Assembly (NCBI GenBank): GCA_008632985.1
Contig: QPGO01000030.1
Span: 124,001 to 187,857, forward strand
Reading direction: 5' to 3'
Origin: Psammoneis japonica
Taxonomy: Eukaryota
DNA length: 63,857 nt
Position 1 is the first letter of the stretch. Each line of letters opens with the position of its first letter. The notes under the pieces are model-generated. The model had not been told where the DNA came from. It made no database searches and was given only the letters and a program-made list of their open reading frames with translations. The translations under genes and the position numbers were made by a program. Below, in pieces: positions 2,781 through 63,857 of the stretch.

Positions 2781-2829
2781 CTCATGCAGAAAGGTCTGAG
2801 TTGTTGCCAACCCTCTGCAGACAGACAAT

Positions 2830-6640: not shown

Positions 6641-7365
6641 TGTTCCACAGCTGACTGGTGTCAAGTGGCTCCATTCCTCAAAATGCGCAACCCAGCAATG
6701 AGAGTTGTTTGTTTTTGTGTTGCAACAAGATGAGCGCCACCCACTCATTTTGAGCTCTTGTGATTCTCAATCGACAAACTGAGAAACATCCAACTTCTCT
6801 GTTTTGCAGCATGGCAAACAGCCAAGCAACAAGAGACTCACCCCATTTGCAACACTGCTCTGCTCCAAGTTGTTGCTGCATGAATGCCGTTGTGCCCCAT
6901 GTGGTGTGTTGTGGAGAGTGCTGATCTAACTCCACTCTGCAATGATGCGTGTGCCGGTTGATGTCGTTGACAATGCAGGTGGTGCGTGTTGATGCACAGC
7001 TGAAAGTTGTTTCAGAGTTCTTGTGCAACAACTTTGACTCCTCATCCAACACGAAGTTGCTGCACAAAAACTCTGAAATGCGGTCATTTTAGCACAAAGA
7101 AGAGAGCACAAATCTATTGCCGGAAGAAGTTGTGGGGCGTTGCCGGCAGTGTTAGAATAGAGGGCCATAACCGCGCGATTTCCGATTCAAAACAATGCAG
7201 ACGCTCTTTGATTGGTGGACCAAAATTTCAAAATGTGTGCCAAGTACAAGGTGTTTTCCGTCAGACCTGCGGAAGACATGAGTCTTAATCTTTGCTCAGC
7301 TCACCGCACTGTCGCACTTGTCTACGGGTGCGTACGTTCTGCGGAGGAAGATTTGGGAGTTAACC

Positions 7366-11191: not shown

Positions 11192-12789
11192 TCTGTGTCA
11201 CTTCAATGCGAAAGAAGACACTACGGTAGCGTAAGAAAAGGTGAAGAAAGGCCTCCTTGCTCCTTGTGCTCCTCCTCTCCTCACTTTGGCTTCGTTTCTC
11301 TTCTCTGCTCCTTCACCGTTCGATCGCCAATCGCCAACACGAAAATCATCAGCAACAAACAAAAAAAGAAAAAAGAGAGAAAAAAATGAAAATCGAACGC
11401 ATGCGAGAGAGAGCGAGTGCGCGAGCCCGCGCGCAAGATCGAGCAGAAGTGACAACACAAGCGCCTAGCCTCGAAAATCATGGACAGCTTGCCGAGTTTC
11501 ATTTTTGGCATGCCAGTAGAAACATCCAATGTGTTTCTACATGTGACAGCACGAACATCTTGAACTCTGCGAGCTCCAACACCAGAACAACACGAAGCAT
11601 GAAGAGTTTGCGAGAGAGCGAATGGCGTTGCTGACACACTGTGAGCGCAAAGCAAAAATGCCAAAACATTGTTGTTGCACAACATGTGGGTGGTTGGTCT
11701 GTCAACAGACAAAATGAATTTCCCCTTCAAAGCTGGTCAGAAGCTTCAACAGACTGCACAGCTGTTTGTGTGTGTTGTTGGGTGGCAACAGACAGAGGGG
11801 CATGCGTGGCCCACTTTGGGTCATTCTCAAATGACAACCACAGCCAACTCCTCCACCAACATTGCTGATGTCTTCTCTGTCGAATTGCTGCTCAATTCAG
11901 CCAATGCTCTCTGCAGCAGAAGAGCAAATGATGAGACTTCCAGCTTGTCCACCAAGATGACAATGCCGCCGACTCGACAACTCTCCAGCACTTTTGTTTC
12001 AGTCACAGATTTGTCATGTGACTGGTCAATGTCCACAACCGCAAATCTTTTCGGAAGTGTTGCTTGTTTGCACCCACAAAGCAGAGCCCCCCAAGCTGCT
12101 GCTGCATGGAGAAAAGGATGACAAAGCAGCCAGTCACAGTTCCTGGATGAGCAACCTCTTTTCAGAACAAGCCCTCCTCCTTGGGATCAAGCTCAGTTCA
12201 CTGTCATGCCACCAATTTTGGCTCTGCTGAGTCATCCATGCTGCCGGTTGTGTTTGCCACAGTGCTGCTGAAGTGACTTCCAATGAGGCCAACATGTCAT
12301 TTGCAGTTCTTGCATCTGCACAAACAGATTCAGGCAAGCCCTCCTTGGCCTCCAGACACGTTCCAGATGCAGGTGGGAATCCGTGTGATGTTGGGCCCGC
12401 AGAATTCTGCATGCAAGCTCTGCAGCAAATTCATTGGGTGATGAATGTGCCAATGATTGCCAACAGAAAATGAGGCAATTTTGTGAATGCACAAACTCGT
12501 CCATGATTGATGCGCATCAATTTTTACTTGGCCGGGTGCATTCTTCAGACATTGAAGAATGCACACCTGGTGCACTCATGTTCACACAATTTTGTCAAAC
12601 AAAATGTCTGGGGTTTTGCAAAACAGCGAGTCTGGAACAGGTTTTTGGAAGATCACATGTGGAAATGTGCGAAACATGTGACGGATGACAACAAACAATT
12701 TTGTGTCACACATCAGCACTGCGAGCTCCCACCTGGGGCTGGAGCGTGTCTCCAGCTGACTCCACCGTCATGCTGCCACATTGAGAACT

Positions 12790-13315
12790 GCTGAGTCTTC
12801 CATGATGCATGCTGATGTCACAATGCTGCTGCCAAAGACACTTCAAACAGGGTCAGTGCATCGTTGCAATTCCAATGCCGACCATTGCACATCATGTTGA
12901 TGGGTCCAACGGCATCTTTTCATGGCGAAACAAAACCCCTGTGACTCGGTTACGACCGGCCATTGCTGGGTCTTCCACGCCACATGCTGAAATCACAATG
13001 CCACTGAAGACACTTCAAACAGGGTCAGCGCATCATTGCAACTCCAATGCCGACCATTGCACATCATGTTGATGGGTCCAACGGCGTTTTTTCATGGCAA
13101 AACAAAACCCCTGCACAACTCGGTCACAACCGGCCATTGCTGAGTCTTCCATGCCACATGCCAATGTCACAATGCCACCAAAGACACTTCAAACAGGGTC
13201 AGTGCATCATCACAATTCCAACACCGACCATTGTGCATCATGTTGATGGGTCCAACGTCTCGCTTTTTCATGGCGAAACAAAACCCCTGCAACTTGGTCC
13301 TCACGACCGGCCATT
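12790..13315 (+). repeat. Tandem repeat, 3 copies of ~175 bp
   Basis: Units start at ~12791, ~12966 and ~13140 (CTGRGTCTTCCA..AAGACACTTCAAACAGGGTCAG..CATCATGTTGATGGGTCCAACG..AACAAAACCCCTG..ACCGGCCATT). Confidence 0.95.
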
Positions 13316-13602
13316 TTCTTGAACCAATTGTCAGCAATGTTCTGAGACTCCATGGCAAGGGAGATGTGATGTGGCAAGGCAGTGTCTGAGTGCAAAAAAC
13401 GCCGTCGCATCATCATCATTGTGAGTGCGGCATGCACAGGCACAGGTCGCCACACAAATTTGAATGAGCTGATGGCTCCAACTGCCATTTCAGTGCAAAC
13501 GCAGGTAGAAACTTGCATGTGCACATCTGCACAACTTTGCACTGGCATGCCAAAAATAATGAACTCGGCAAGCTGTCATGCTGCATGTGCTGCAGACAAA
13601 AG

Positions 13603-13803
13603 AGGACCGAAAAGGGAAAAACAGTGGACCGAAAAATTTCGGTCCATTTTCGTCGCGCGCACGCGCGAATGGACCGAAAAGTCGGCAGAAGTGGACCGAA
13701 AAATTTCGGTCCATTTTCGTCGCGCGCACACGCGAATGGACCGAAAAAAGAACCGAAAAAAGAAAACAAGAGGGAAAGGAGTGGACCGAAAAATTTCGGT
13801 CCA
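13603..13803. repeat. Cluster of imperfect palindromes GTGGACCGAAAAATTTCGGTCCA, probable transposon subterminal repeats
   Basis: Full copies at 13624, 13691 and 13781; half-sites GGACCGAAAA at ~13604, ~13671 and ~13738. Confidence 0.8.
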
Positions 13804-16160: not shown

Positions 16161-19100
16161 CGCTTCAAGCACATCTCTTCTTGGAACGTCCTTGCCAATC
16201 CAACATGGTTGAAACAACAGCGGTCTCTTTTGCCACTCTGAAGCTACCGGTCTCAACAGCATCGATCGCCAATCGTGGGTCGTGGGTCGTCTGTCGAGCA
16301 AGCAACAAGCAACCCGGTGTTTCGATTCGGTCTGTCCTGCTGTCCTGCCCGTCCATTTTTGGAATTCGAGCACTCTACTCTACACTAGAGCTCTAGAGCT
16401 GCTAGCTAGAGACATTGGAAAACAGAAAACCTTTTCGCGCAACATTGATCCCGTCATTGAGCTGATCGCTTTGAAGCACTTGTGAACCCATGTGTGTCAG
16501 AACAACTGCATTCTGCTTGGGCAGTGTCACATGTTGGATTGTTGTGGAGATGATGTGCACACTGTCCCCATGGATGTGCAGGTCTCCAACAGCAGAGGTG
16601 CACAAGAGTGCTGCCTTGTCATGGTGGCCACACCAGATTTGCCTCAGAGACAGCTTGCAATTTCAGTCCAGTCAGCACAGTTGTGTTGAGAGCACCTGGT
16701 CAAGCCACAGTTCACCATTTGCCAGCAGTCCAGATCATCTCTGCTTTTGTTGTTTTGCCCGACAAACCTTCCTCCTGGATGGGACACCCAGCAAGGTCCA
16801 CAGCAGCAAGCAGAGCAAACATCACTCGCACACCCACCCTGTGCAATTTCATGAGTTGAGCTGACCCACCCTCCACCTGTTGGGGTCCTTTCTGCCCCAC
16901 AACCATTTGGACATGCTTGCATGAGATTGAGAGCAATGGTCGCAGCTTTGGCTGTCCTTGCTCCCCTCTTCTTTCATTCTCTCGAAGAGCCCCAGCTGCC
17001 CAATGCAAATGCAACAGTCACACAGTGCACAGTTTTTAACACCATCATCATTGTGGCAAAGGACACCATCTGCCATTGTTGAGATCATTTGCAAAGAGCA
17101 ACATTTTGTCACACCACAAACAATCCACAGCAGCACCCAGCGGCAGGGCAGGAGGGAGTGGCACCCAACTTGCCAAATGTCAGTGTTGCCCCACCACCCC
17201 AAGTTAGCTTCCTGTGCAGCCAGTGGCTGGAGCACAAAACATCAACACCCCACCACTGCCGCAAGCTCTGGCATGCCACTGACACCTCAAGCAGTGCCAG
17301 GAGCAGGTCACAGGTCAGCCGCCACCACCATCACCCCCCTGCAGGAGGAGGAGCACTGGTGCCAGCAGCACTGCTGGCTCTGGCTGTGCACAACTGCCAG
17401 GCTTGCCATGCTGTGGCAGCAAGAGAGATCTCCACACCAAGGAGAGCACACACCAAGTTGATGCAGGACTTTGTGGCGCTGGTGTGGGGGCAGTCTCACT
17501 GCAACCTTGGTGCTTTGCACAGTTGGGTGGCAGCAGCTTTGAGTCATGATTTGCCTGTGGTGGTGATGCTGCAGCCACTGTCACACCCACCAGAACACTG
17601 CAGCAGGTGCTGCACAACCTTGGGAGGATGACAGCATTTTTGCAATCATGGGGGACCTCACTCACAACCAGCTCACTCCAGTGGAGTTTGGAGATGCATC
17701 CTTCCAAGCAGCTCAGTGTGGTGCTTGGCCAGGCACCCACCCCCATGAAGCACCACTGGGCAAATTGCCGCCATTCCCCATGGACTCCATCCACATGTTC
17801 AGGCAAGTGCAGTCAACATGGAAGAGGGTGAGCTCACAGCACAGTGCACACACTGTTTGAGTTTACACTGTTGAGCCCCAAGAAAGTGCATCTGCACATC
17901 TGCACACAGGGTTGCTGCAGCAGCAAACAAGGTTGCTGCCACTGCTGGATTTTCTGTGAGGGGCACCATGCTGCACAACCCCCAACCCCCAGCCACAGCT
18001 GGTGGCAGCACAGGAGTGGCCATGCGTGGTGCACCCACATGATGATGAAGCCCCCACATGGCATTTGCACCTTGAGAGGTGGTGTGAGTGTGCAACATCC
18101 CTGAACATGCAGGCCAAAAGCCCAGCAACACCCACAGCAACTCTGACCCATTGCAGCCACCATTGAAGAGCTGACATCCCCCAGCATGGGAGGTCTGCAA
18201 TTGAGCTGCTGACATCTGAGCAGCATCAGCAGCATCAGCAGCACCTCAATGCAAAACAAGAGTGTCAATCCTCAGCAGCATGTGGGAAGACTCCAGGTGA
18301 GTTTCTGGGAGTTTTTGGCATCACCAAGTTGATGCACTTGGCACTGGTGTCAGGTGTGGTGTGACAAAGCAGCTCTGCTGCCCCTTCTTTGAAGCAATGT
18401 GGCTGCACAGCTCAGAAGACCAGCCACATTGCTGCAGCACAGAATGTGCTTGATGAGCAGTGGCATGCACTGGCACTGTGTTTTGATTTGCCAGTCTCTC
18501 ATGGCAAAAATGACAACCAACCAAGATGGAGCAACTGGATTTTGTGGGGGTCGCAACCAGGATGAGCCAATGCAAGGAATCAACCCATTCCTTTTTGGCC
18601 TCATGACTCCACAGAGTGCAGAACAAATGGCATGCCACAGCATGGCAGATGTGTTTCTTGGACCTGATCTGCTTGAGACTTGACACTCTAATGTCCAACC
18701 ATGACTTGGGGCAGATGTTTTGACAATGCTGTGTGCTTGTAGAGTCTTTGATCCTGAGGTGCTTGGAATGGGTTGCATCAGAACAAATCTTCTTGTTTTG
18801 CAGACAAAAAACAGTGTTCCATCTTGAGGTGCTGCTCGCATTGAGCTTCTTCTGCTTGGAAATCGATTCCAGCAGAACTGGCACCACACATGTGCACATG
18901 CATGGATGCATGGAGAAGTGGGTGCTCCATCATTTTGTGGGACACCCAGCTCCTGGAAGATGTGCTCCAGCTCCAGGTGGGACCACACTGTGACAGTGAT
19001 GTTTTTCTGTCATGCACTGTGTGTCACACATGTGCACTTCTGCATGACTTTGGTGGCATTGTGTGTCATTTTGCACTGATTCACTCAACAAGTCTCACAT

Positions 19101-20399
19101 TGTTTTGCACAAAGCCATTCTTAAATGTCTGCAGGCTGGGGTGGCATGGTGCAGGCAGATTTTCTGCAATTGTGAACAACACGAAGAAGTGCAATTGTGA
19201 TGCAAACTTGGTCATTCACTTGCATGATGAAGATGAGCACATTCATTGCTCAATGTGCAAACTGCAGAGCTTGCCATGTGAAACTCCATGGGCCCAAGTC
19301 ACACAGAGTCCTGCCTGGGGCTGGGGTGCATCAGAAGCACTGGACAAGGTGCTGGTGGTGACCATGGTTGCAAGTGCCCCAACAATCTTGTGATGGGTGT
19401 CCCCTGGTTTGTTGAGCTGCTCTGGGTGAGAACTGCCCGGTGGTGCAGTGGTCATCCCGGCAGCACCATTGCATGGAAGTGTGCATGAACAAGTTGGTGT
19501 GCAGCATGCAGCATGTCCAACCCTGCCTGCCAATTTTCAAAGATGCACTTGAGTTGAAATCTGCCCTTGGTTTTGAGCACAGGCAGGTTCCCATCAGCCA
19601 GCTCCATTTGGGCCCCTTGGCAGTGTGCACAAGGCAGTGAAGAGTGCCACATTCTGGCACCAGCTCCATCTTCATCAACACAGTTGAGCATGATGTCTGG
19701 ATCATCTTTGGCAATGGTGGAATTGACCAGCAGCCATCAAAAGCCCTTGCCTCTGTAAACTGGGGTGCTCTTGCAGCAACAACACAACTGTGCACAACTC
19801 CCAGTTTCTTGTGACAGCCGCACTTTGCAAAGTCACACAAGACTGGCCTGACATGTGAGGTTGAAGAATGGCAGGTTGCTGCACTGTGTGCATCAAGCCA
19901 CCTTGAGATGACAAAAGAGCAGTGCATTGACACCCACATCATGTCAAGGGACAGTGCAATGCCAACTGTGGATTGAGCAATGACCATTGCAACAACCACA
20001 CTGAGAAAGAACAGGCCCAACTCTTCTCCCAGGGCAAGGAACACAGGAAGGCTGAGTGGGTCTTTGGCAACAGACCAAGTGTGGGAACTTCAATCCAAGA
20101 GCCACCCCTTGTGTTGACAGCACAGTTGACACATTCACAACCCTCAATTGTGGAGAGTCCAACACCCCACTTCCCATTGTGGACAGGACATGGCTGCTGC
20201 ATTGTGCAATGACAAGACAGGTGAGCACACACAGATTGATGCTGAGTTGTTGTGTTGCAGAGGTCTCACTTGCTTGTTGCATCTGTGGTGCAGCAGAGGC
20301 AACAGGGGCAAGCCAGGCAGAGAGCCAAACACCACCCAGCACACAGGCTCTTGAACAGTTGCAAGAACTCAGGCACCCCCATCACAATTGCCAGCAAGC

Positions 20400-21320
20400 C
20401 ACGGAGGTGTGTCAAGCTGCACTGAGTTCTTGGGTGTGGCAGATGCAGTGGAAAAGGGATTCTGGGCAGTGCTGCTCTGCAAGGAAGTCATGAGCATGCC
20501 CAGTGCAAAGCTCAGCCCCCCTGGGGTTGTGCTGCAGCATGGTCATTGCCCATGGCCAATCATGGATCACACCTTCTGTGGGATCAATCCTTTTGTGCAG
20601 TCCAACATGGCAGCCCAACATGGCAACAGGGTCAATGCAATGCAGGTGAATGTTCAACTGCCTGCTCCACCACAGGCTCCTGGCACAAATCCTGCCAAAG
20701 GAAAGGTTTGCCTCATTGTGACAAACTTGGCTGACCATTTTGCAGGATGCAACTGGCACTGGAGAGGCAGAGCACCCACATTGGGTGTGACATTTCCTCA
20801 ACTTCCAAGGGAGATGCCACCTGTCACCACTTCAATGAAGTCATCTGCAGGTTGGGCCAACTCACCACCCCTGCTCTGCACCACAGCCACCAAACCCTCA
20901 GAACCAATGTGACCATCCTCAACTTTGTGCACAATGTGCCAGCACCGCTGCACACATTGGAGTGATGGCTCAACGGCAGAGCTGCCTGCCACCTTGCCTG
21001 GATCCTTGCCTCCAGCCAAGAAGATGAAGATGCAGTCTCCTCCAATGCATTAAAATGTGCATTGGTGACTTCATTGGAGCAGCTGCCAAGCTTCACAGAA
21101 CACACAAAGTGTGCTCCTCTCCATGCACTTGATGATGCCAAACTCCATCCACTTGATTGTCAGGACCATCCCACCCACAAAGATCCAGCATCTGTGAAGA
21201 AGCTCCACCAGGGTGATGCAACTTGGTCAACCCAGAAGGAAGTGCCAGGTTGGGCTGTGGGCACTCAGTCTGCAACCCTTTGCTTGACCCCTCATCAGTG
21301 ATCCAGGCTTCACAACACAC
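20400..21320 (+). pseudogene. Ngaro/DIRS-type reverse transcriptase remnant
   Basis: EKGFWAVL, KLSPPGVVLQ..PIMDHTFCGIN, LADHF, GWANSPPLLC, LHALDD..PLD..DHPTHKDPASVKKLHQGDATWSTQKEVPGW. Confidence 0.8.
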
Positions 21321-22164
21321 TGTGCACCAGGACTTTCTCACACAAACAAAAGTGTGCCACCATGTCCAACTGGTGTCAAAGGGGGCTCCTTGGAGAATTC
21401 CTTTTGCTTGGCATTGGTTTGCCATGCTCATGCAGGCTCTTTTCAGAGCTGCAAGAAAATCTCCATCACACTGCACTGCACTCATGAGTCTACATTGCAG
21501 GCAACTCACATGGTGCAATGGACACAAGGACTTCCACAATTTAGAATCTGCCATCAGTTCTTGGTGCCCACATGAATGTGAAAACTGGCCCCATTGCAAA
21601 CCACTGCATGGTGCAGGTGCTGTGCTCTTGCCAACTGCAAGAACATTGGCACCCCCTCCCATCACAAGTCACCAAAAGGCTGGGCACCTGAACAAATGCC
21701 ATGAGGCCCCACCACCAGCACTGATCCAGAGCTTGCCAACAGCATCATTCAATCCTGCACAGTGGCCAAGTGTTTTGATGTCAGGGAGCACACACTGCTT
21801 TCCTGTCCTGACAACATGGGCACACCATGTGCTTGCAATGCAAAGGATCAGCTGCATCTGTGAAAGTGCTTTTTGATGCAGCTGCACACCTTCAGCAGTC
21901 CATCTGTGTTTCTGTGTGACTTCTTGCACTGATGATGTTGCCCTTTACAGATGGTGTCATGTTGGCTCCAACAAGCCCATTTTGTCCACATTTGCCAATG
22001 GCATGACCTCATTGCAGCATGGTGAGAAATGTTCTTCAGTGGAAAATGACCAGTGCTGAAGCCTTGTGGCTTGCATCCTGGTTGTCATTTCTTGCAATTG
22101 TCTGTTGTCTCAGAAAATTTTCCACACAGGTTCAAGTGCAAATTCTGCATGGCTCAGCAGCAGA

Positions 22165-22605
22165 AACTGCTGATGATTTGCATGTCACATCTCCGGACTG
22201 CTTTTGTCCTTGCCAATCAGTCTTCAACACTGCTTCTTTTCTCTGCAGTTCAACCAACAAGTCCTCCACTCTTTGGTGTGAAAGCACTGCCTCTGTTGTG
22301 AACCTTTCCAGCAAGAGCATGAGCCATCCTTTGGTGTCATTTGATTGTCATCTGTTTGCCACTCTCATTGGCTTTTCTGTGCAAGATCTGGCATTGTTGC
22401 CATGTGATGCCACTGACGATCTGCTTGTCACATTTCCAGACTGCTTCTGTCCACACCAACCAGTCTCCAATGCCACTTGTTCTTTCTGTCATTCAATCAA
22501 GTCTTTCACTCTTTGGAGTGGAAGTGCTGCCTCTGTTGTGGCCCTTGCAAGCACAAACAAGAGTTGCCTTTCAGTGCCATTTGATTGTCATCCATTTGCT
22601 GCACC
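22165..22605 (+). repeat. Diverged tandem duplication, period ~240 bp
   Basis: ~22165-22365 aligns to ~22408-22605 (CTGAYGATYTGC..GACTGCTT..CACTCTTTGG..CTGCCTCTGTTGTG..CATTTGATTGTCATC). Confidence 0.8.
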
Positions 22606-23279
22606 ATTGGCTTTTTCATGCAAGATGATCCAGCATTGTTTTTGTGTGCAATGAATTTTTTCCCAAATGACCTGCTTGTCTTGCCTTGAGGCACCTGGTT
22701 CAATGCATCCAAGTCCTGTGCAATCCTTCTTCTGCTTGCCAGGTGTCCCAGCTCACTGCTTTGAGTGACAAACTTCTTGTTGTTGCAGCTCTCCTTGGCA
22801 CAAGAATGCAGCATGTTCCAAAGGGTTCTGCGGGCTCTTTTAAAAACCTGTCTGAACACAATTGTCCTTTGCAGTTGTGCTGTGCCTTCCATGGCTGTTG
22901 CCAACAAGCATGCAACAAAAACTCCTCTTGCAAGCCATTCTTGTTTAGTCATTTTGGCGGGTGTCACCTTCTGGTGGTGCCCACTCTGGCAAATCATGCA
23001 CAAGCTCCTCCTTCACTGAAACAGTGCAGCAGGAATGTGGGTTGGCTGGCACTGGCCTGGCTGGCAATGGAGTGACAGCACTGAAAATTTGGATCTGTTT
23101 TTTTTTGGCATCTGTGAAACCAGCTGCAAAGCTTCTCAGTGATGCCAGCCCCAGTGCCAATGACACCACTGCCACCTTGGCTCACATGCCTGCCTGCCCG
23201 CCCAGCCCCACCAACACTGCTGCTGAAAACACTTCCCACCTGCAAAACCTTTCTGGTCACAATTTGTTGCAAAGTCTTG

Positions 23280-24020
23280 GCTCTTGCCATCCACAGAAAC
23301 TCTCCTGGCACCCACCTTTGGATGCTGCTGTCAGAGCTGAGTTCATGTGTGATCTCAATGCTGCTCAGCACATTGTTGCCTGTGGTGTGACCACTTTGCA
23401 AACCACTGCCACCAATGCTCACTGGGACAAGTGGTGTCAGCTCTGCACCACTTTGAACCACCCCTTAAATTAAGGATGACGACCCTGCTGTTGTCTTCCT
23501 CCAAGTCATCCCCCACCACTTCCCAGCCAGAGTTGTTGACTTGTTGCCCCACATGGCAACCCCATCCATGGATGCACCACACACTGAAGATGCCACACAG
23601 TCAGCTGGGCAGGCATTCACTTCAGGTGTGCCAGATCTACACCACATGTCCCAAGGCCTTGTGGATTTCTGCTTCACCCATCCAGCAAGTTCATTTCTGC
23701 AAGTTCAACAAGTCAAGCACCTCTGCACCTGTGGTGCTTGCATTTTGCCAAGCACCATTGCCAGCATGCTTCACAATGCCATCATTTCATTGGGGCCAGC
23801 CAATCTTGGTTTTTGCCACCCACAACAATGCTGCTCAGCATCTGTGGATTGCAGGCACTTTGGCCTTGTTTTGCATTCACGTTGACACCAATCTGACCCA
23901 GCTCTTGGGCTGGCAGCACTCTGGTGAAATGTCACACTGCCTGTGTCTGGAGGCAGAACCCACCATGTGCAACCTCACCTGCAACATGCTTGCGGCAGGC
24001 AGCAACTTTGTCCTCCATCT
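23280..24020 (+). pseudogene. Tyrosine recombinase remnant of the Ngaro element
   Basis: HWDKWCQLC at the N-terminal side. C-terminal HLWIAGTLALFCIHVDTNLTQLLGWQHSGEMSHCLC matches the recalled consensus xSLRAGGAxAL..I.LLGRWxSDxMxRYL. Confidence 0.75.
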
Positions 24021-25114
24021 CAACACAGACATTTTGACAAATCCCCAAGATCCCTGAGTGCCACACCCCTCTGGACTTGACCCATCAACCTGCTGCTCAA
24101 TGATGTGATGCACATCCTTTGTGAGTGCCTTGCACTGCAGGTGGAGCTGGAAGGCCCTGCTGCTCCAGCTTGGTTCAGGGAGTGAGGCTGTGACTCTGTC
24201 AGAGAAGCCATTCCAGCCCAGCTTTAGAACTTGCACCTCTCCAGCAGTTTGCAAGAGAGATGCAGCAGGAGAAGGAACAAGAAGGGTGCAGGTGTGGTTG
24301 CCCACATTGTGACATTCAATGAGTTGAAATGACCCACCCTCCACCAACCGTCTGGGTCATTTCCATCACACAAACCATTTGAGCACACTTGCACAAGATT
24401 GAGAGCATTGGCTGCTGCTCTGGTTTTCCTCACTCTTCTTTCATTTTCTTGAAAACCAGCAAAGAGCAACAGCCACAGCAGACAACTCTCAGCAATCCAC
24501 CTCTCCCATCCTCTGGCCCTGCTGCTCCAGCTTGGGGGTCGTTGGGGAATGAGGCTTGTGCATCCACTGGCAAAGCCACTCCAGCACAGCATTGGAACTT
24601 GCACCTCTCCAGTTTGCTAGAGAGAGAGAGAGAGAGAGACATCCAGGAGAGGGAACGAGAAGGGTGGTGGCAGCCACACACAAAGCTGCCTGAAGGAGCA
24701 ATGCACATGTGTCATCTGTCCGTCCGCCATCACTTCTGTCCTCGATCGTGTCGGACACAGAACACCTTTCCCTCTAGCTCAAACCCACTGTGCTTAGATG
24801 CTTCTACAATGTTGTGGCAGAGGTTGTGTCTCCACATTCTGCCTGCGCATGTTACATCCAGAGCCTGCCGCTTTGCAGAGGCGTCTCTGAATGTGATTGG
24901 GATGGATCTTTAGAGTAGTTCTTGTTTGCTGTCTTTGGTAAGGGCCAAGTCGAGTGAGTCGATGGCCTGTTCGACGGCAGGGGAACAATTCATCGGCGAA
25001 GATGATAGAAGATATTGAAACAAATTAAAACTACCTAGAAACCATCCAATTATGTTTTCAGAAAGCTGTTGTGTAGAACTAAAAGCAGTCGAATGCTGTT
25101 TGCATGATAAAAAA

Positions 25115-29002: not shown

Positions 29003-29179
29003 ATGGGTGTTGACTAAAGCCGCTATGAGTTAGCTGTTATTGCAATGCTTATCCAGATTAGATCTTTCCTTTTTTGAAACGACGAATGAGAACCCCGTTT
29101 CAAAGTGAAGAAGAGTGGGATCAAGGAGGTGATGTCCCACCACGCGCAAGTTCGTTCGCGCCATCCATCCGAGTGTCCG

Positions 29180-30380
29180 AGCTCATTCCTTTCTCCTGTC
29201 AACGTTGCACTGCACGTCGATGACAGTCAAGAGTGAGTTTTCACTTGCAGCCCATGCCGCCCACCCTTTGCGGCTCTCCGGCTGTTGTAGAGAGCCAACC
29301 TGCCCGGGTGTCCCCAATCTGGTCCTCGAGCTTGAGGTCCAGTGCTCATGGCTTGCACCACAACCAACCAGAGAGCTCATCTGGTGTGGCATGAGCCGCC
29401 GCGCAGCACAGCACCAGAGCTGGCTGCGGGAAGAAGCAGAGTCAGAGAGCGACAGAGGGCAATCATCACGTTGATTGGTTCAGTGGCACAACTGGAGGAG
29501 GGGACAGCACACAAGGTTTGCCAGCGCGCTCAGATCAAAACGACAAATGCCCCCCCCCCCCCCAGCGCGCTCTCTCTCTCTGCTCTTTTTGCCCCAGACT
29601 TGTGGCGTCATTCACACAGCCTTGTTCACATGCTGGTGGAAACTGTGTTGGGTTGCACTGGACCTGCAACTTGGACAAAAAAGCTGCAGCATGTGTCGGC
29701 GACTGCTGGAAGATGCGAGCCATGCCCAACGAAGTTGATTTTCTTTCAGAAAAAAAACGAAGCCAGAGCTGTGCAAGTGCGCAGTTCTAAAATGCCTGTG
29801 CTGCTGCTGGCTCTGGCTCATGCTCAATCCAGTGGGCAGGAGTGTTAGCATGATTGCTGGTGTCAGCTGTCAGTGGTCCATGTTGAGAGGTCATGCAGGA
29901 GCTGGGCTTTGATGTTGTGCCTTGGATGCATGCAAAGCCCATGTGTCACTCTCTGACGAGCTGCTTGGAACGACCCCCCTGCCTTTTTGTTTGTCGGTGG
30001 ATGCACCCACACAGCTGTGCAAAGTCAGTGCAGCACTCCTCTGGCTGAACATTTCTTCGTGGAACATGCCAACTCAGAAATGTTCTCACAACTGCAACAG
30101 TCAACCACAGCCCACCAACAACCCACATTTGCTCAGCTGCCCACTTGGCGGCGCACAACAAGAGGCAACAAAGCTCTCTTTTGAGTGTGCACAATCACAT
30201 CTGGTAAGATGAGTTTCTCCACACAATGGCACAAGTGCAACAAATGCAATGCAACAAATGCAATGATGGTCAGAATGATGACAGCAGAATGCCTCACTGC
30301 TCTCCTGCTGGCCTGCGCGTGTGGCAGGTTAGGTGTCGGTCTCGTGTTCGTGTGTGCGTCGTTCTCTCTCAACAATTGAA
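29180..30380. repeat. Decayed repeat block 4 (class unresolved)
   Basis: TA nearly absent, CG partly retained, TG/CA-rich; no recognisable protein motif. Confidence 0.65.
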
Positions 30381-40304: not shown

Positions 40305-40410
40305 GTAAGACCGTCTTAAGACCGTCTTAAGACCGAAATATATAAAGGATGTATATAATTCAATACTCTTTTAAGACGGTCTTAAGACGATCTTAAGACG
40401 GTCTTAAGAC
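40305..40410. repeat. Inverted array of 11-bp units built on the palindrome GTCTTAAGAC, within an AT-rich island
   Basis: Left arm TAAGACCG TCTTAAGACCG TCTTAAGACCG; right arm TTAAGACGG TCTTAAGACGA TCTTAAGACGG TCTTAAGAC; AT-rich spacer of ~35 bp. Confidence 0.9.
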
Positions 40411-45419: not shown

Positions 45420-47620
45420 ACAGTTCATTTCCACAAGATCTTTTTTCAATCTCTTGTTGTTCAATGGTTTCAGATCCGGTTCAATTCAACAATGGATGAT
45501 GATGTGGCAAATGCTGGAATACTTGGTGTGAGGTGCTCCAAAACTTTGTGGCTGTGGTGGGCCTGGCAGATCCGGCGGCAATCTCACCAGCACAATTTCT
45601 CAATGGCTGTGCGGTGCTGGTGAAGCACACACCAAGCTCCAGCCAAACAATTGTGTGTCCCCCCATGTCAAGAGTTGTCTCACTGTGCTGGAGTCTACAG
45701 CTAGTGGCAAAGTGCATGGAAGGAACAGCCTCAAAGAACAAACTCCAAATGACCAAGCCCACACACTGCTCAGCCGATGCAGAGCCCAAATGAGTTCACA
45801 AAAGCAAACATGTTCTCTGACACATTGTGCTCAATTCTCCAGTTGTCAGAGCCCATGCTGACTTTCAGAAACTCTTTTTCTGAACAAGAGCAAACTTTTT
45901 CTGTTGGCTGTGAGCTCCTGTTGGTCTTGTTCTCCTTGTCCCATGCTGCGGTGGTTGACCCAACAGCTGCGCTCTAAATCAGCCACCAGTCTGTGTGTTT
46001 CTCCCTTTGACAATGGCACCTGGGGTGTTGCTGCTGCAGATGGGTGCCTTTTCATGGCCCTGCACAAGGGTGCAGTTCTTGCCAGTCTTTGCAGATGCTG
46101 GCAGCTCAGCAATTGTTTCAGCATGGTGAGCAGGCCAGCAGAGAAAGATCATGCAGAATGTCACCTTGTTGGTGCCCAAGATCTTGCTGAGTGGCAGCTG
46201 TCTGCCACCAGCCAACTCCATCTCAATTCAGCCATGGTCATCAAGAGTGCAAATCATTCAGAAAATGTGATGACTGCTGATGCTGTGCTCCACAGCTTTC
46301 TTCTTTCTTTGACAAAGGACAGCCAGAGTCTACAAGCACCCCTCAAAATTTGAGTCACACAGATCAATTGTGGCTCTTGTGAGAAGTGTGACTGCTGCTG
46401 AGTCATGGCAAAACCAGGCACATCTGGCTCTCTTCTGTGGCTCACTGTGAACATGATCAGCAGCAAAAGTTGCTGGGAGATGGAATGGCAGCGCACAATG
46501 CAACCTTTGTGGAGGTGTTGATTGAGCTCAACATTTTTCATGAACAACAATCAAACTGGATTTTTGTTCTTTTGTTGTTGTTGGACATGTCAAATGTCAA
46601 CATCTGTGTGAGGATGAAATGAGCTGCTGATGGGGAGGGGGAGCAACACTTGCTGGCCTGCCTTGAAAAATGATGAATCAGATTTTGCATTTGTTGAGTG
46701 CAGTGTGCAGTGAGCAGTGATTTGGCCACTTGAGTTGACAGCAGTGTGCTGTGCAGCTGACTGCCTTTGCATTTGTTTTCATCATGCAGGGGCAGGTGGT
46801 GGTGTGCACAAAGATGGACATGCTGGCTCAGAATTTTGTGCCAGACATGAGATGAGAAGCAGCATCTTGGATGCTTTTGCACTCACATCATGCATCTCAT
46901 CACTTCATTGTTGACATCAGTTGATGCCAGGCTCCCAGCCATTGTCCCAACCACAGCAGTGTGCTGCTGCAAAAGAACAGCTCATTCTTGGGGGCACCTC
47001 ACTTCCACAGTTTCTGTCATCATCAGAGCTGGCATGCTGGTGTGCACCACCTCTCTGCTGGCAGCCTGATTGCAGCATGCTCAGGTTAGCTTGGCCTCAC
47101 CAACTCCACATTCTGGCTTCCCAACAATGGCCAAGAGAGTTTCCGTCTGCTGGCAAGAGCAAGTGGACATGCAAAACCAGTGCTGCATCTTGGCAGCTGG
47201 TTTGCAGTGAAAGATTGCTTTCCGCTCATTGGCAATGATCAGTTTGACCCTGTCGTGCAGTTCTCAATCCCTTTCTCTCCACAATTCAATGTTTGTGCAG
47301 CCCAAGTGTCACAGTGAAGTGCCTCTTGTGACTTCCCTTCAGCTCTTCGTCCTCCAGCAACATGAATGTGGCATTCACTTGTTGCGGGGATGGCTGAAAC
47401 AGGCTGCTGGCACTGTGCGCACAGGTGGTCATCATCTTTGATGCTGTGCTCGTGTGACATGGTGACACCGCCATTTTTGACAGCGCGATTTTCAGCTGCC
47501 TTGAGTGGGCCAAGTCCCAACTTTTATGACCTAAAGTTACTTTACATCCATCACCTGCCAACCAGCACTGACTCTTACCCATGGCATGCCCACTCATGCA
47601 GCAGCTTTCCTGTTTCTAGC
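45420..47620. repeat. Decayed repeat block 5 (class unresolved)
   Basis: TA/CG-depleted, TG/CA-rich; no motif I could assign confidently. Confidence 0.7.
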
Positions 47621-53279: not shown

Positions 53280-56200
53280 TCCCGCCAATGATCAAACAGA
53301 CAGGCTTCTTTTGCTTTTCCCAAAAGACAACATGCGCACCGCCATTGTCATGTTTCTTGACCCATTCTATCTTCAGGTCTTCTGACAGTGCTGCTGGTCC
53401 ATGGTGGTGTTGTGAGGGGTGTGTGCTGCCGCTTTAATTGTCATCATAATGACATGAGAACTTCTCACTGTGTGCTGCAGCCCAACCCACAATGAGTTGG
53501 GGCCAGTTCACTGAGGTGCTGTGGTGCAAAACATGCAGCAGTCTGCACAATTCTGGTGCAAAATCAACATCAATTGTGAGAGAAATCTGCCACATGGCCA
53601 ACGTTGTTGGATGACACCTGACTGCTGACTCTGCCACTTCCATGCAAATCATCTGCAACCTTGGCAACTGTGCTGTGACAGCCCATCATCTGATGCATGC
53701 TTGCCTTCATTGGCTGTGCATTTTTTGCACAGTTTGAAGCATTGACAGCCCCAAAAACAGCTGTGTTTTCCATGCCAGATGAAGCGACACATCTGGGCAT
53801 CACATTTTTCAACTGCACTTTCTTCATGACTTCCACAAAGTTTGAGACTCTCTGTCTGTCCTCTGTGTTGTTTTGGCACGTGTTGTTGCTGGTCATCATG
53901 TTTGAAGAGCTCTGCTGTCATGCAAAGGAGCCATCCTTTCTTCCATGTAAAAAGTGCAGTTGCAGAAGATCGCTCTGCTGGATCACAAAGCATGACACCT
54001 GCTCTTTGTGCATTTCATTTGCTGGGCTGGCTGGTGTGCTCAGCTCTTTTTTTTTTTTGCAGTGCCCCACAAAACGTGTGGGGGCTGCAAAGATTCCAGT
54101 GCACTTTGCTCTCTGACTTGGTGGTTCGTTCTGGGGAAGATGCACAAAAAAGTTGCACATGAATCTGCAAATGCATGATCCAATGCACAACTCAGCCACA
54201 CATTATCTGCCTGCACACGCATGCACACCAGAGATGAAAGAGCAGCAACAAAGACTCAGATGATGGATGATTTTCTCACTCAAAAATGGGTGCAAACTCT
54301 GCTCTTTAGTCTCAAACATGTGGGCACAGATTTTGAAATGAGAGAGTGCAGGTTTTCTGTGACAATCAAAGTAGAGTGAGCTTTGCAACTCCTCTCAGCA
54401 TGGAGTTGCACACAGGAGCAGTTGTTGCACACAAACAAGAAGAGCGCATTGTGCACACAGTTTGTGCCATCTGCTGCAGGACCAAAGAGAAGGTTGTGCT
54501 GTGATGCGCCATTCTTGTGAGTGCATTTTCTTGACAAATGGTGCAAAGAATGTTGACTGCATGATGTGAGAAATTTGAAGAAACTTGTGCTGCCATTTTG
54601 GAGGCTTTCAAACATGTTTCAGAGAAGTGCCAGCCAAAGTTAGGAACTTTGTGAGCAAGAGCCAGCATTGTGTGTGCTTTTTGGCACAACAGCACATGAC
54701 AAATGAAAGCACTGAGACTCATTTTCAAAAAGTGCGCACAAAACAGCTTTTTCACTCCATGCACAGCATCAGCCAGGTTGCCCCACTTCTCTTCAGCAGT
54801 GTCAGCCAAAACTGCTGCTCCAAAGCTGCGTCAAACAATTTGGTGCTGAGCAGCAAGCTCCAACTTGGCTGCAACAATTTTTGCACAAAGCTGGTCTCCA
54901 ATGAATGGCAAGAACCAATGCAAGAAAGCACAAAGCACTGCAGCCAAAAGTGCTCCATGTGTCCCCATTTGACAGCAGCAATTTCTGTTCTGACAAGCTT
55001 GTGCTGGGGGCACAGTTTCAACTTTTGTTTGCAATTTTGTCTCAACCAAGATGCAGAGGAAAGTGGCAAAGGAACAGTTGGAAGAATTTTTGCCAAATGG
55101 AGACACAGGGACATTTGCTGGTGTTTGAAATGTCACTCAGTGTGTGCATCCAAGCGCACATGCCAGCACATTTGAAACCTTGTTTCAAGCTCAAACACAT
55201 TGCCTTGGCAGCACTCCACAAGAGAAAAAAATGAGAAAGAGCATGGCTTGATCCAGGCCACTCAAGTTGACAAGAGCACCTTCTCTGTCAAAGAGCCAGG
55301 TTTTGCAACCACAGAAAGTCTTTTCCCACACTCAGAGTGGCAGGAAAGAAGAAATGACAACTCTGTGTGTTGTGGCATTTTTGTGCTGACTGAGGCGGCA
55401 CCCACTTTTTACTCATTGTGTTTTGAAGGGATGTGCTGCAAGAGAGTGTGCTGAAAAAAAACTGCTCTGGAGCTGGCTCCTGGGGCCATGCAGAAAGGGC
55501 GTGTTGGCATGCAGCTTGAAGCTGTTGTGTGTGCAAGGCTCCTGGGAGAGTGAGAAGAAAAAGAAACACTGTCAGAGCTTTGTGGGGGCTGGGCCTGTTC
55601 CAACCCCAGGTGAAATGCTTTTGGCACACTCCCAAACAAAGAGCATCTTTCTCAAACTCCTCTTCCAAAATGCAGGTTTTCAAATGAAACAGTGTGCAGT
55701 TGCGTGGAGCACGGCATTTTGCATGTGACAAAATGTCTTGCTTTGTTTGCAAACATGTCGAAATTGAAACCCCAGATTTAAAAAGATGTGATTTGCCAAG
55801 TGTCCCAAGCCACACCATTTTGTGCCACTTGGAGCTTTGGAAAGCTGCCAAAGACACTGCAGCCCATGTCTGGATGTGGAGAATGAGGTGCTCTGCACAA
55901 TTTCCTTCTTGAAGCCAAAAGCTCAGTCATGTGCTTCACCCTCATTGCTCAAACTCAGACCCATCTCTGGTGTGCTCAAAGTTGTGTTGTGAAGAGAGAA
56001 GAGAGGTGCAGCAAGCTCTGAAGACAAGATGTTTGGGGAGCACAAAGGTGCTCTCATGCTTTCAAACTGACTTTTCTGCACAGTCCAGTTGCCAAAATGC
56101 AGGAGCCCCCCCAGTGTTGCTGTCTGCAAAATGACAAGGAACACAGAGCACACATCTTTGTCAACAATGCTTGTTGGCCACATTGTGACATCTTCTCTGG

Positions 56201-57480
56201 CTTGGCTCTGGGCCCTTTTGGCCAACCTTTTCTTTTGTTTGATCATGTGCCAGCAAGAAGCCAAGAGATGAGCCCTTGAGTTGAAAAAAAATGATGGATG
56301 ACTGCTTTTTGTCTCATGTCCTTTGACCAAAGCTGGCCTTTTCTGCCCATCTTCTGTTTTTCTGTCTCATCTCTTGTGAGCCATGCTCAAGATGCAATTT
56401 TTTGCACAGTGACCCCCCTCCACCCCCCACCCCCAGAGGACATTTGTGTGTCACAAGCACCAGGAATGTGACACAAAAATCTTAAAAAATCCATGACACA
56501 CCAAACAGTGCAGTCCAAGGAATGACAGTGCCAACAGTGTGGTTCATTGAAAACAGCGCTCAGAAGACTGAGAGCGCATGTGCCACGGCGCACAAGATGT
56601 CTGTGCGAGTGTCAAAATGCAGAGCATTGGTGGGCAAGAAGTTGACATTTTGTGGCTGCTGTGCACTTGCAAAAGAGTTGTGTGGCATCTGCGCTGTTGA
56701 CACTCAAGTCTTGTCCAGAAAGTTGTTGAACTTTGTTTTGCACTCAACAAAGCCAAGGGAAAGCTGCCATGTTCAACAGCTGCGGGCAGTGCCAGATTGC
56801 AGCAAAACACCCAAATCAAAGAAAAACATGATCAGAGGCAGAGCTGGCACTGAGGATTGCTCGCTGCAGCGACAAAGGCACAGAGCTTGTTTGCTCCTTG
56901 CTTGGCATTTTGTCAGTTGACTCTCAACATTTTTTGCCAGACAAGGGCTCACCTCAGTGTTTTGTCAGGAGCAGAGGTCTTCAAAACAGTGTGTCAAGCA
57001 TTGAGGACAGATGCACAGAAAACACACTGCACGGTTCTGGAACATTTTTCTGAAACTCGAGGCAAAAAATGATGCCGCTTGTTTCTCAGCAAGCTGCGCT
57101 TGTTTTTTTTTCTGTCATTTTAAAAGGTGCTGAAAATGGAGAAGGTGCTTGTTTGTGGGGCTTTTTGTGAGACATGGCACTTCCAAAGGTGCTGTGTGTC
57201 AATGTCTTTTGTGCGACGGTGCATGCCTGGCTTTCTCTTGCTTGCCTCTCTGCCCCCCCCTCTCCCTTCAAAAACTTTGTGACAGCAGCAGCCGCTTGTT
57301 CCAGCACGAGAATGGAAGGACTGATTTGAACACCTTTTCCCCCCATGCTCAACCATGCATCTAGCCAGCAGTGTCCAAAACAGTGTGTGCCACGAAAGCA
57401 GCCCAGCGGCTGCAGCAGGTCTGGTTGCCACATGGTGCTTGCACACAACACATGCACAGAGCGGGAGAGGAGGAGTCGTT
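53280..57480. repeat. Decayed repeat block 6 (probable transposon-derived, class unresolved)
   Basis: TA/CG-depleted over ~4.2 kb; only a weak Ulp1-like 'ND..CGIFVL' string near 55350-55390. Confidence 0.7.
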
Positions 57481-57858
57481 CGAGCGCGTCGAAAAATGCT
57501 CATGGACGACAACAGACGATGTATGCACCCTCGGGGCGGGCGGGCGAGCGCGAGAATGGGCGATTGAAAACAACATGATTCCAAAAAGCCTGTTGATCAA
57601 TATGGTACCGTAACCACAACATAAATACGAAAAGGAATTTTTGATTTCTTTTGATGGCTTCAACTTGATCGGCACGCAAGGTGCGGAAGCAGCACCAAAA
57701 TTTGAATGGCACATGGCACAACAAGGGTAATACTTCGGCGTCATAGACAAGCCGTCCCTTGAACCTAGTTGTTACTCGCGGCACCACAAGAGTAGTCCTT
57801 ACCACTCCTGTAGTTGAATTGTCGCTTGCAGACACGCAGCACAAAAGATTCAAGGAAA

Positions 57859-61526: not shown

Positions 61527-61821
61527 GTATTTTGAACTTGTCGCACACTTCTTTATTATCACGACGTCGACTTAGGCAAAATCGATGAGGGGTGGCTATT
61601 ACACGTAAATTCCGGATGAATCCTTCAGCAACGATGATGGTCGGTTGTTCTGTACGTAGTGGCTTGTAACGTGACGCCTGTACTGCATCCGTCGGCTACG
61701 TGCAAGCCGTGTGATGTACAGACCGTGGGCTAGACAGCTCCGATCTCAGCCATCCCTTGCACTCTCACAACAACCATCCTCACCCTTTTGGCACAGGACA
61801 CCTCATCGGATATCCCCTACC

Positions 61822-63857
61822 ATGGCGTCTGACGATGACGCCCTGTACGACTTGTGCTGTGCTGATGGCACGCAACATGGAATCCCGCCCGGAACGAACC
61901 CTGGAATGACGCCATCGATTTTAGCCGCAACCTGCGGCCAACACGGACAGAGAACCAATGCTGCTCACACGTCGGCTCGAGAACGTGCGTGGGAAGACAG
62001 GAGGAAACCCATGATTAACGGACGGCTTAATCTGCAACCCAAGAAATGGATGGACAGGACCCACATGCTGCCCCCGGCACCAGGACCGAACGATCCCCGA
62101 GAGGTCAAGAGCGCCGTCCTAGACCACTCATTGCGCACCATTCGTGAAGGGGAAGGTGCTTGGCAAGCCAAGTGTGAACTGATGACCACTCATCTGGGCA
62201 CACCGATGGTGATGACGCAAGCAAAACTTAGGATCGCCTCGTTCGACCTGTTGACACACCCCACCTGTGCATGCACGTTTGCAGGTGCAGTTGACTCAAA
62301 CGTCAGAAACATCAACGTGCCAGCTGTCGACGGAGCAGCATTCCGGAACACAGCACGTCACGCAGTGTACGACGTAACCATCAACCCCGGCAACGCGGAC
62401 CCAGTGCACGCACTTCGCACGCCAGTCCCAGCAGAGACGAGGCGCGTGTACGCGCGCTTGCCACTGATCGGAGGACAACTCCACCCGAACATCAACGGAG
62501 CAACGATCCGATTCTTTGGACACGTGCACCAAACCATGCTTGCCGCAAACCAACCCATCGAGCTCAGCCTCAATGCGGAAACCTGCCTCAGCGAAGAGGC
62601 CTTCCAAACATGGAAAAAAAGCATCTGCTGCAAGACGCTCTACGAGCACATAGCCCAACTCATGCCGTCCGCCTTCGTCGGAGATGGGGCAATCAAGTCC
62701 GCCGCAAATCGATTGCAAGAATGCACCATGGTCACACAAGACCCAGTGACAGGAACCAAGAAAGGCAGATCCACCCAAGAGCATTTTGAGGCATTCTCCA
62801 GCATCGCAGCAGAGCTCGACACGAACCACCCATGCCCAGTCAACCTCGCATGCACATGCTGCTACTCCTTGCCAATGAAATTGCAGGAAAAACTCCACAC
62901 CAAGGGTCACAGCCCCCCTGAGGTGTGCAACGGGAATGAGGAACAACTGGCAAATCTCAACACAGCCAAGCAAAGGGCAACGGAGTGTGAACTCGAACTC
63001 AAGATAGAACTCGACACTGTCAAGAATGCGGCAAACAGACGAGGACAAAACCAGTCAGTGGTTATGATGGCTAACCCCAACATCGGAACTCACCAATTCC
63101 CAACGGAAACTCCAGCAAGCATTCCCGGATGCGCAGCCATGCCCAACCCTGCCGCCATTCCTGGATGCGCAGCCACCCCCAACAGCGCACACCCTGGAAC
63201 ACAATCGACCACCCCACAAACGGCACAGCCGACACCAGGAACATTGGCCCACAGTTCAGCAGTGCCAATGGCGACGTTCGGCCCAACGCAACTGTCCACA
63301 TTGCTCTCGGATGCAGCACAAAGAGCCCTCACACAAGATGTCAATGTCACCGACGACACCCCATGTGTCATGTTCCTGTCCACAGCCGAGCAAGCCATGC
63401 GCCAGGCCAGCGGCATGACAGCTCCATGCAAATGTTGGGGCTGCGATGGCATGCACAAATGGGCTGACTGTGACAAACGGAACGACCCCAACGCAAAAGC
63501 AAAAGCAATGGTCAAGATGCAAGAGTTGCGAGAACAATGGCGCGAGAAACGCAGGGCGAGGAACTCCTCACACCAACCAGCGTTGAAACGCACCATGTTG
63601 AGCGAACCAGAGGTGACGGAAAACTGGGAGAGGCTTGGATTCCCCAACAGCAAGGTGGCAAAACAGGTGCACACATTAGCTGCCCCAGAAACATCCAACA
63701 AGAGGCGCAAGCAGATCTGCAAGACCATGTCCACCTTGCTCGCCCAGAAAGACGAGGACAGCCAGATCCACGGAACCCCGGATGTCACACTGTTCACGAC
63801 AATTCGAGCAATGCAAGGCACCATCCCAAACGCACCACTCGACATGTCAGCGGATCT
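61822..63857 (+). mobile_element. Retrotransposon gag-like ORF (open to the right window edge) with zinc knuckle
   Basis: Not in the ORF track. My translation from ATG 61822 has no stop to the edge (~678 codons), with CWGCDGMHKWADC (CX2CX3HX4C) at ~63433-63471 and a Pro/Ala/Thr-rich segment before it. The element's 5' end is probably at ~61650-61800. Confidence 0.7.

Follow-up and report, generated by a model that had tools for sequence, protein, structure and literature searches.

We analysed a window of 63,857 nucleotides from Psammoneis japonica (contig QPGO01000030.1, positions 124,001 to 187,857), which ends inside a mobile element whose Gag open reading frame (ORF) begins at 61822. The results indicate that this Gag gene, although still open, is probably the casualty of a TpA-specific A:T to G:C process that, per site, outpaces the CpG decay trailing behind it several-fold. 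Over 61822-63857, TA occurs 16 times (observed/expected ratio, O/E, 0.18) and CG 127 times (O/E 0.81), and the steps TG (136; O/E 1.84) and CA (250; O/E 1.34) are in excess. In the non-depleted DNA of the window (53 overlapping 2-kb windows), TA O/E was 0.58 ± 0.10 (minimum 0.37) and CG O/E was 0.98 ± 0.07 (minimum 0.78). The ORF therefore lies about 4 standard deviations below the local DNA in TA and slightly low in CG, a depletion beyond chance. From the ATG at 61822 the frame runs without a stop up to the end of the window (678 aa) and encodes 5 Tyr, 24 Cys and 24 His residues; all 5 Tyr codons are TAC, with G as the next letter in 4 of them. An earlier sequence-only reading had reported 16 TA, abundant CG, 5 Tyr, 24 Cys and a stop-free frame, and these counts were reproduced exactly. 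The peptide strings that it had named, HPCPVNLACTCCYSL and IPGCAA (twice), are both present in the ORF, with IPGCAA sitting in a linker that cannot be aligned to relatives.

We compared the predicted protein with its relatives, which numbered 124 at E ≤ 0.001 in an exhaustive phmmer protein search. The results showed that the low TA of the ORF is mutational and not native. Tyr makes up 0.7 % of the protein compared with 3.0 ± 0.6 % in 55 normal relatives, while Cys reaches 3.5 % (relatives: 1.3 ± 0.4 %) and His 3.5 % (relatives: 2.7 ± 0.9 %), so that a Tyr shortfall of about 16 residues is roughly matched by a Cys plus His surplus of about 20. When the Gag ORF was aligned with 24 relatives, Tyr was the plurality residue in six columns of its range, and the ORF itself reads H, C, H, F, F and H there, with His at columns 81, 180 and 363. 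We then defined a conserved column as one in which a single residue is common to at least 50 % of the normal relatives. The ORF matched 95 of 137 conserved columns other than Tyr (69 %), within the range of the normal relatives themselves (69-79 %), but none of the four conserved Tyr columns, where it carries C, H, H and F instead. The normal relatives retain 2-5 of 6-7 Tyr columns; where they deviate they mostly carry F or W, and M once. These results indicate that the damage is specific to Tyr and faster than ordinary divergence. They also bear out the earlier proposal that the excess Cys and His derive from Tyr, since relatives have Tyr or other aromatic residues at these places (Tyr in 19 of 21 at aa 363); homologues sharing the Cys and His residues would have pointed to a native low TA, and the normal relatives carry Tyr.

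Additionally, we determined TA O/E at codon positions 1-2, 2-3 and 3|1. The values were 0.19, 0.15 and 0.23 in the Gag ORF and 0.49, 0.55 and 0.54 in 12 host ORFs. This equal depletion over the codon-position classes indicates a process that is blind to coding. By the codon table, a change of TA to TG or CA affects in-frame TAY codons (giving TGY or CAY), codons of the form xTA and the junction xxT|Axx. No sense codon becomes a stop in this way, and CpG decay can create one only through CGA to TGA. The sequence-only reading had likewise argued that TA loss makes no stops, which holds by the codon table, and the 7 CGA codons of the ORF are all intact. The match to the top relative, P0001 (E 5.8e-115, identity 39 %), spans aa 10-653 in one piece, and the ORF is thus without a frameshift. 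Since TA loss removes TAA and TAG from every frame, antisense ORFs of 250 aa also occur in the Gag region; more generally, a process that strips TAA and TAG from six frames and adds no stops leaves open frames that cannot be taken as evidence of function.

A second version of the element, an allele or a paralogue, was read from contigs of run X1. The depth of its bubble arms was 28-39, compared with 45-58 for the window-like arms. Seven rows at 62178-62193 from one contig that is less than 90 % alike and skips 61782-62147, and two host-gene rows (61121 and 61149, run X2), were left out of the difference count. The window and the second version then differed in 28 letters, all of them transitions, which make up 22 events. 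Pyrimidine-purine steps hold 19 of the 22 events (P = 0.0007). Ten events are CG↔TG/CA exchanges (CG on the window side in 7 and on the second-version side in 3), and six are TG↔CA doubles at adjacent letters. In three more, a TA of the window faces TG or CA in the second version (the reverse was seen 0 times), and the remaining 3 are other transitions. Random placement would be expected to give 0.38 doubles (P = 3e-6), and opposite-direction CpG double hits would yield 0.08. The doubles therefore point to one ancestral TA that was lost independently in both versions, once per strand. Three of the 6 doubles are Cys↔His codon pairs (codons 149, 151 and 584), two of them at aromatic columns: relatives read F12/Y5/W3 at column 149 and Y12/W4/F4 at column 151. 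The 20 differing codons comprise 13 non-synonymous and 7 synonymous ones, and neither version acquires a stop. The two versions decay without visible constraint. The open frame was accordingly rejected as a mark of function, on the strength of the codon logic, the untouched CGA codons and this ratio of differing codons.

These comparisons make it very improbable that low TA is simply native to the composition or codon usage of the element family and that the protein is functional. Retroelements are often skewed in composition, high Thr and Ala also occur in the closest relative P0001, and the frame is open with an intact zinc knuckle, all of which fit that explanation. It is contradicted by the finding that, among the 96 relatives with a length of 250 aa or more, 91 are not poor in Tyr, by the contrast between conserved Tyr (0 of 4) and the other conserved residues, by the same depletion at synonymous and non-synonymous codon-position classes, and by the replacement of Cys by His, or the reverse, at aromatic columns between two versions in which 13 of 20 differing codons are non-synonymous.

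A sequencing or assembly artefact, such as systematic miscalls at modified bases, is more improbable still. At three positions (62271, 62667 and 63343) the window does disagree with all or most of the X1 depth, and all three are CG↔CA exchanges. Against an artefact, the Gag ORF was reproduced by exact 31-mer contigs at a depth of about 57-84, 12 of 19 contigs being at least 99 % alike; the host genes in the window are normal, and Tyr-poor relatives occur in other data sets. Run X1 is possibly the assembly's own source, so that the agreement of its contigs is not independent support.

To compare TA loss with CG loss, we calculated the differences between the two versions per site. TA-derived sites differed in 9 of 21 cases (0.43) and CG sites in 10 of 125 (0.08). 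The window as a whole contains seven TA-depleted segments, the Gag element included, with TA O/E of 0.03-0.18 and TG/CA of 1.3-2.0. Their CG O/E values were 0.06, 0.10, 0.11, 0.19, 0.53, 0.62 and 0.80, the last being that of the Gag element. The element had been called the least decayed one, and it does have the highest residual TA and CG among the seven. Among 254 windows of 500 bp, none had CG depleted with TA kept, and the fully depleted cores are bordered by margins in which CG recovers while TA is still absent. The large old segments contain TG and CA in near-equal numbers (761/723 and 941/1063), which indicates that both strands were hit, and GC was 0.56 in the TA-only segments. The claimed separability of TA loss from CpG loss, and the lead of TA, are thus upheld by the near-normal CG of the element, by the absence of CG-only windows and by the per-site rates. 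The "temporal order" deduced from it stands in so far as TA leads; it is better read as a difference in rate or dose than as a strict sequence, because CpG is already decaying in the element (10 polymorphic CG sites) and because TA-only margins flank the cores spatially.

The four fully depleted segments are presumably old mobile-element relics that represent the end state of the same process. No Pfam domain was found in the ORFs of the six segments other than the Gag element (34 + 69 ORFs, 17 scanned twice). One of the intermediate segments contains a tandem repeat of about 175 bp (12789-13315); both TG↔CA doubles and CG↔TG/CA exchanges occur between its units.

The remaining 38,158 bp of non-depleted DNA had TA O/E 0.56, TG/CA about 1.18 and CG 0.97, a baseline that may itself reflect a milder genome-wide TA to TG/CA bias. 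These values are what would favour a general, untargeted mutation bias of the genome from TA to TG or CA that, given long time and no selection, goes to completion. We regard this explanation as unlikely, since gene-free DNA between host genes retains 3-9 TA per 100 bp, the borders of the depleted segments are sharp, and Tyr is gone from the ORF while other conserved residues stay at the rate of intact relatives, with TA loss far ahead of substitution.

The strand on which TA was lost bears on a further explanation, in which an A-to-I deaminase edits transcripts and the edits are fixed by reverse transcription over retrotransposition cycles. Such a deaminase would have a preference for a 5' U, and the observed change is indeed A to G beside T. 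The coding-strand class TA to TG dominates the Gag ORF (TG O/E 1.84 compared with CA 1.34, and a larger gain of Cys than of His), and the losses are mostly common to both versions, as would be expected from an edited progenitor. Such edits are heritable on the plus strand only, yet coding-strand T to C changes are common (the His residues at 81, 180 and 363), and CA stands on the window side in 3 of the 6 doubles. Moreover, TG is about equal to CA in the old segments, depletion there goes down to O/E 0.03, and the U3-R-U5 long terminal repeat (LTR), likewise copied from RNA, is spared. We therefore consider editing at the RNA level quite unlikely.

We further examined the sequence context of the TA steps that survive in the depleted segments (n = 73). 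Survivors were enriched in TTAA (4.2-fold) and in CTAA/TTAG (3.3-fold), whereas ATAT was reduced to 0, ATAC/GTAT to 0.10-fold and ATAG/CTAT to 0.25-fold. This uneven survival by flanks suggests a tetranucleotide preference of the process. The suggestion that TACG is protected did not hold: it rested on 4 of 16 sites, one of which lies inside the undepleted LTR, and over the depleted segments TACG accounts for 4 of the 73 survivors, a share of 0.055 compared with 0.067 in normal DNA. Among the surviving CG sites, GCGC and CCGC/GCGG were favoured.

The loss observed here is blind to codon position, continues independently in the two versions and leads over CpG loss. We propose that TpA is converted to TpG or CpA, that is, that on either strand the palindromic TA step would be struck by an A:T to G:C change. 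Within the window, the process would be limited to the seven gene-free segments that resemble relics of mobile elements. Tyr codons would turn into Cys or His codons and no stop would arise, so that conserved tyrosines would vanish from a frame that stays open. The process may act on DNA in place, in silenced chromatin, via a base modification at TpA; candidate chemistries would be the deamination of adenine or the oxidation of the methyl group of thymine, giving a form that pairs with G.

One close parallel among known systems is repeat-induced point mutation (RIP). RIP is described as a change of C:G to T:A, mostly at CpA, through which TpA arises, GC drops and stop codons are created. The present case resembles RIP of ascomycete fungi in that transitions at a fixed dinucleotide strike both strands of repeated or mobile DNA, densely enough to wreck coding. 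As to duplication, at least two versions of the element were found, and the six other segments of this one window have internal direct repeats. The direction is the opposite one: the affected segments show TpA O/E of 0.03-0.18 and TpG/CpA of 1.3-2.0, so that here A:T to G:C changes destroy TpA, raise GC (0.56 in the TA-only segments) and cannot give stops. Also unlike RIP, nothing here points to repeat pairing or to dependence on the sexual cycle. We tentatively put forward, as a possibility somewhat short of an even chance, a hypermutation akin to genome defence that mirrors fungal RIP, in which TpA would be modified in silenced mobile DNA and the Gag gene would be an intermediate stage. TpA would thereby be erased down to O/E 0.03, proteins would be killed through changes of Tyr to Cys or His with no stops made, and the process would run earlier and faster than CpG methylation decay. 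Of the candidate modifications, oxidation of the thymine 5-methyl group would parallel the fate of 5-methylcytosine at CpG.

CpG methylation decay shares with the loss of TA a self-complementary pyrimidine-purine target and the products TG and CA. The two also co-occur, as CG O/E is 0.06-0.19 in four segments and CpG decay has begun in the Gag element with its 10 polymorphic CG. The loss of TA differs in being faster per site and in reaching farther at the segment margins. TpA holds no cytosine, and the deamination of 5-methylcytosine therefore cannot explain its loss. The element combines a CG O/E of 0.80-0.81 with a TA O/E of 0.18, which is not what decay of CpG alone would leave. A-to-I editing of the ADAR/ADAT type resembles the present process in the net change of A to G next to a 5' T or U. 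It differs in acting on RNA with plus-strand inheritance, while the change described here affects both strands and shows as TG↔CA differences between DNA versions; His at Tyr columns and CA in the window in 3 of the 6 doubles are likewise at odds with hyperediting of a single RNA strand.

Several findings weigh against decay of the element in place as we propose it. First, about 9 sites differ between the two versions compared with roughly 50 or more TA lost, so that most of the loss is common to both and its bulk predates their separation; this bulk could have been lost in a progenitor copy, before insertion, or in another genome. Second, the LTR is spared and free of variants, which decay of the whole element in place does not predict. 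Third, the Gag ORF has a strand bias, with a TG excess about twice the CA excess and a Cys gain about three times the His gain. Fourth, the mobile-element nature of the six other segments was deduced from flanking repeats and from the lack of genes, and their ORFs gave no Pfam match. Fifth, the direct-repeat pairs of two old, fully depleted segments contain few TG↔CA doubles, so that, if they are LTR pairs, their elements were largely depleted already at insertion. Finally, a single window and the contigs of one sample, possibly the assembly's own source, supply all the evidence. In addition, no undepleted copy of the element was found in the X1 contigs, which can drop variants.

The probable 5' LTR is the stretch 61665-61877, inside which the Gag frame starts. 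The window covers the 5' end of the element, and neither a 3' LTR nor a target-site duplication was seen in it. Contigs of run X1 part ways before 61665, and the loose end there closes with a purine run, which fits a polypurine tract beside a 3' LTR; behind 61877 the contigs split into two different continuations in both X1 and X2. The unitig 61665-61855 has a depth of 135 compared with 63.7 in the single-copy flank, with 0 other letters in X1, and the stretch is thus invariant in every X1 copy. The window contains no tRNA gene with which the possible primer-binding site could be compared. The LTR is undepleted (8 TA, O/E 0.79; CG O/E 0.86), and at the internal rate the probability of 8 or more TA in it is 0.0006. 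The LTR contains 3.8 TA per 100 bp, and the density declines to 1.3 in 61878-62500 and to 0.5 farther in. A pfkB kinase gene that looks expressed has its start codon 137 bp away from the LTR, and an edge effect, open chromatin or selection on cis-acting signals are candidate causes of its sparing. The host genes around the element are those of an ordinary compact eukaryotic genome and encode an alpha-kinase, an S49 peptidase, Nramp, a sulfate permease, an asparagine synthase and the pfkB kinase.

The ORF itself is the Gag of an LTR retrotransposon, from a family that has no existing model but is of a known kind. Its start Met is identical in all rows of alignment A1, and the start is thus homologous to that of the relatives. 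The zinc-knuckle residues C538, C541, H545 and C550 are invariant in 13 of 13 rows of A1 and in 21-22 homologues of a larger alignment. A word-indexed protein search with the Gag ORF returned nothing of near length. In Pfam we found nothing real for the ORF, zf-CCHC included, and nothing for 13 relatives; a profile of the Gag against solved structures gave the knuckle protein Mpe1 as a weak match (E 0.1), and a protein atlas search gave weak gag/protease leads.

We next modelled aa 60-420 with AlphaFold2 (predicted local distance difference test score, pLDDT, 90.4; predicted template modelling score, pTM, 0.74) and aligned the model to 48,161 chains with VIA-align. The capsid-like C-terminal domain (CTD) of PEG10 matched with Z 10.2 and a root-mean-square deviation (rmsd) of 3.0 over 82 of 85 residues aligned, and the Drosophila copia capsid with Z 8.8 and rmsd 2.5 over 84 aligned residues. 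All 31 of the best 31 rows were retroviral or retrotransposon capsids, including Arc, Rous sarcoma virus (RSV) and Ty1. The match covers model residues 230-340, and the CTD alone was matched clearly. Foldseek returned nothing at E ≤ 0.001, with the PEG10 CTD at probability 1.00 and TMt 0.70. Model residues 1-229 (61999-62685) are predicted as mixed alpha/beta, unlike an all-helical capsid N-terminal domain, and found no clear match in the whole-model search. The protein thus resembles the Gags of Ty1/copia and Ty3/gypsy as well as PEG10, Arc and PNMA in the CTD fold of the capsid, in a knuckle behind the capsid and in the probable LTR upstream, and differs from known Gags in having no Pfam match, in its knuckle spacing (C-x2-C-x3-H-x4-C) and in its alpha/beta N-terminal part.

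Full-length relatives carry a C-terminal retropepsin-like domain with D-S/T-x-A-G, whose counterpart here would fall past the end of the window. The reverse transcriptase, RNase H and integrase of the element would be sited there as well, and no reverse transcriptase or integrase was seen within the window. Neither blastn nor tblastn found a sister copy of the element within the window, and none of the 124 relatives matches elsewhere in it. Pattern scans for the DNA of relatives gave 94 matches in metagenomes and 43 in viral contigs, none of which was confirmed. The features described are collected in the table.

Features of the Gag element and of the TA-depleted segments in the window
Feature	Position	Strand	Details
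5' LTR (probable), 213 bp, TG...CA	61665..61877	+	inferred from contig junctions; one LTR in window
Possible primer-binding site	61878..61895	+	starts TGG, directly 3' of LTR; weak inference from sequence reading
Gag ORF	61822..63855	+	678 aa; begins within LTR, leaves window at its end; TA O/E 0.18, CG O/E 0.81
Codons 149 and 151	62266..62274	+	Cys in window, His in second version; TG↔CA doubles in the first two positions of each codon
Capsid C-terminal-domain-like fold, aa 289-399	62686..63018	+	AlphaFold2 model and structure alignment
Codon 363, CAC (His)	62908..62910	+	Tyr in 19/21 normal relatives; Cys in Tyr-poor P0014 and P0024
Zinc knuckle C-x2-C-x3-H-x4-C (C538, C541, H545, C550)	63433..63471	+	intact; alignment
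Codon 584	63571..63573	+	His in window, Cys in second version; TG↔CA double
Four gene-free segments	800-7000, 16500-24600, 45500-47400, 53400-57500		TA O/E 0.03-0.05, CG O/E 0.06-0.19; TG and CA near 2.0; GC unchanged
Two intermediate segments	11400-13800, 29100-29900		TA O/E 0.05, 0.08; CG O/E 0.62, 0.53
Direct-repeat pair	2138-2624 and 5635-6163		identity 78.6 %; 101 TG/CA steps in common, 6 TG↔CA doubles
Direct-repeat pair	16833-17022 and 24301-24477		identity 70.1 %; 24 TG/CA steps in common, 3 TG↔CA doubles

The known host-driven hypermutation of mobile DNA is C to T (RIP, decay of 5-methylcytosine, APOBEC). If the interpretation given here is true, a TpA-specific A:T to G:C change at the DNA level, limited to relics of mobile elements, would be a new mutational signature and would point to an enzyme or base modification not yet known. 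The full texts searched, with subscription journals outside the scope, contained no published description of TpA loss to TpG or CpA in mobile DNA, and the available part of PMC2806351 contains none either. Ages of elements estimated from divergence would be misleading if there is a five-fold difference between the TA clock and the CG clock. Because this element can be aligned to intact relatives and has two versions, the direction, context and relative rates of the process can be read from it directly.

Within the set of 96 relatives that reach 250 aa, five (P0014, P0024, P0026, P0086 and P0122) likewise combine little Tyr with much Cys. The 1131 aa of P0024 include 0 Tyr and the Tyr content of P0014 is 0.1 %, and both carry Cys or His at several family Tyr columns, which suggests that other subfamilies were struck too, here or in other genomes. 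Tyr-less, Cys/His-rich predicted proteins such as P0014, P0024 and others may mean that similar corpses lie in public databases.

Six further relatives (P0016, P0020, P0031, P0038, P0039 and P0041) are 2277-2940 aa long with a Gag-like N-terminus, and all except P0038 have a retropepsin-like C-terminus. Pfam identified no family across their middle stretch of about 1500-2000 residues, nor any reverse transcriptase or integrase, which makes their layout unusual for a Gag-protease family without a Pfam model. Elsewhere in the window, an inverted self-match of 101 bp (81 %) was observed at 40306-40406, just upstream of a gene for an ABC-class ATPase.

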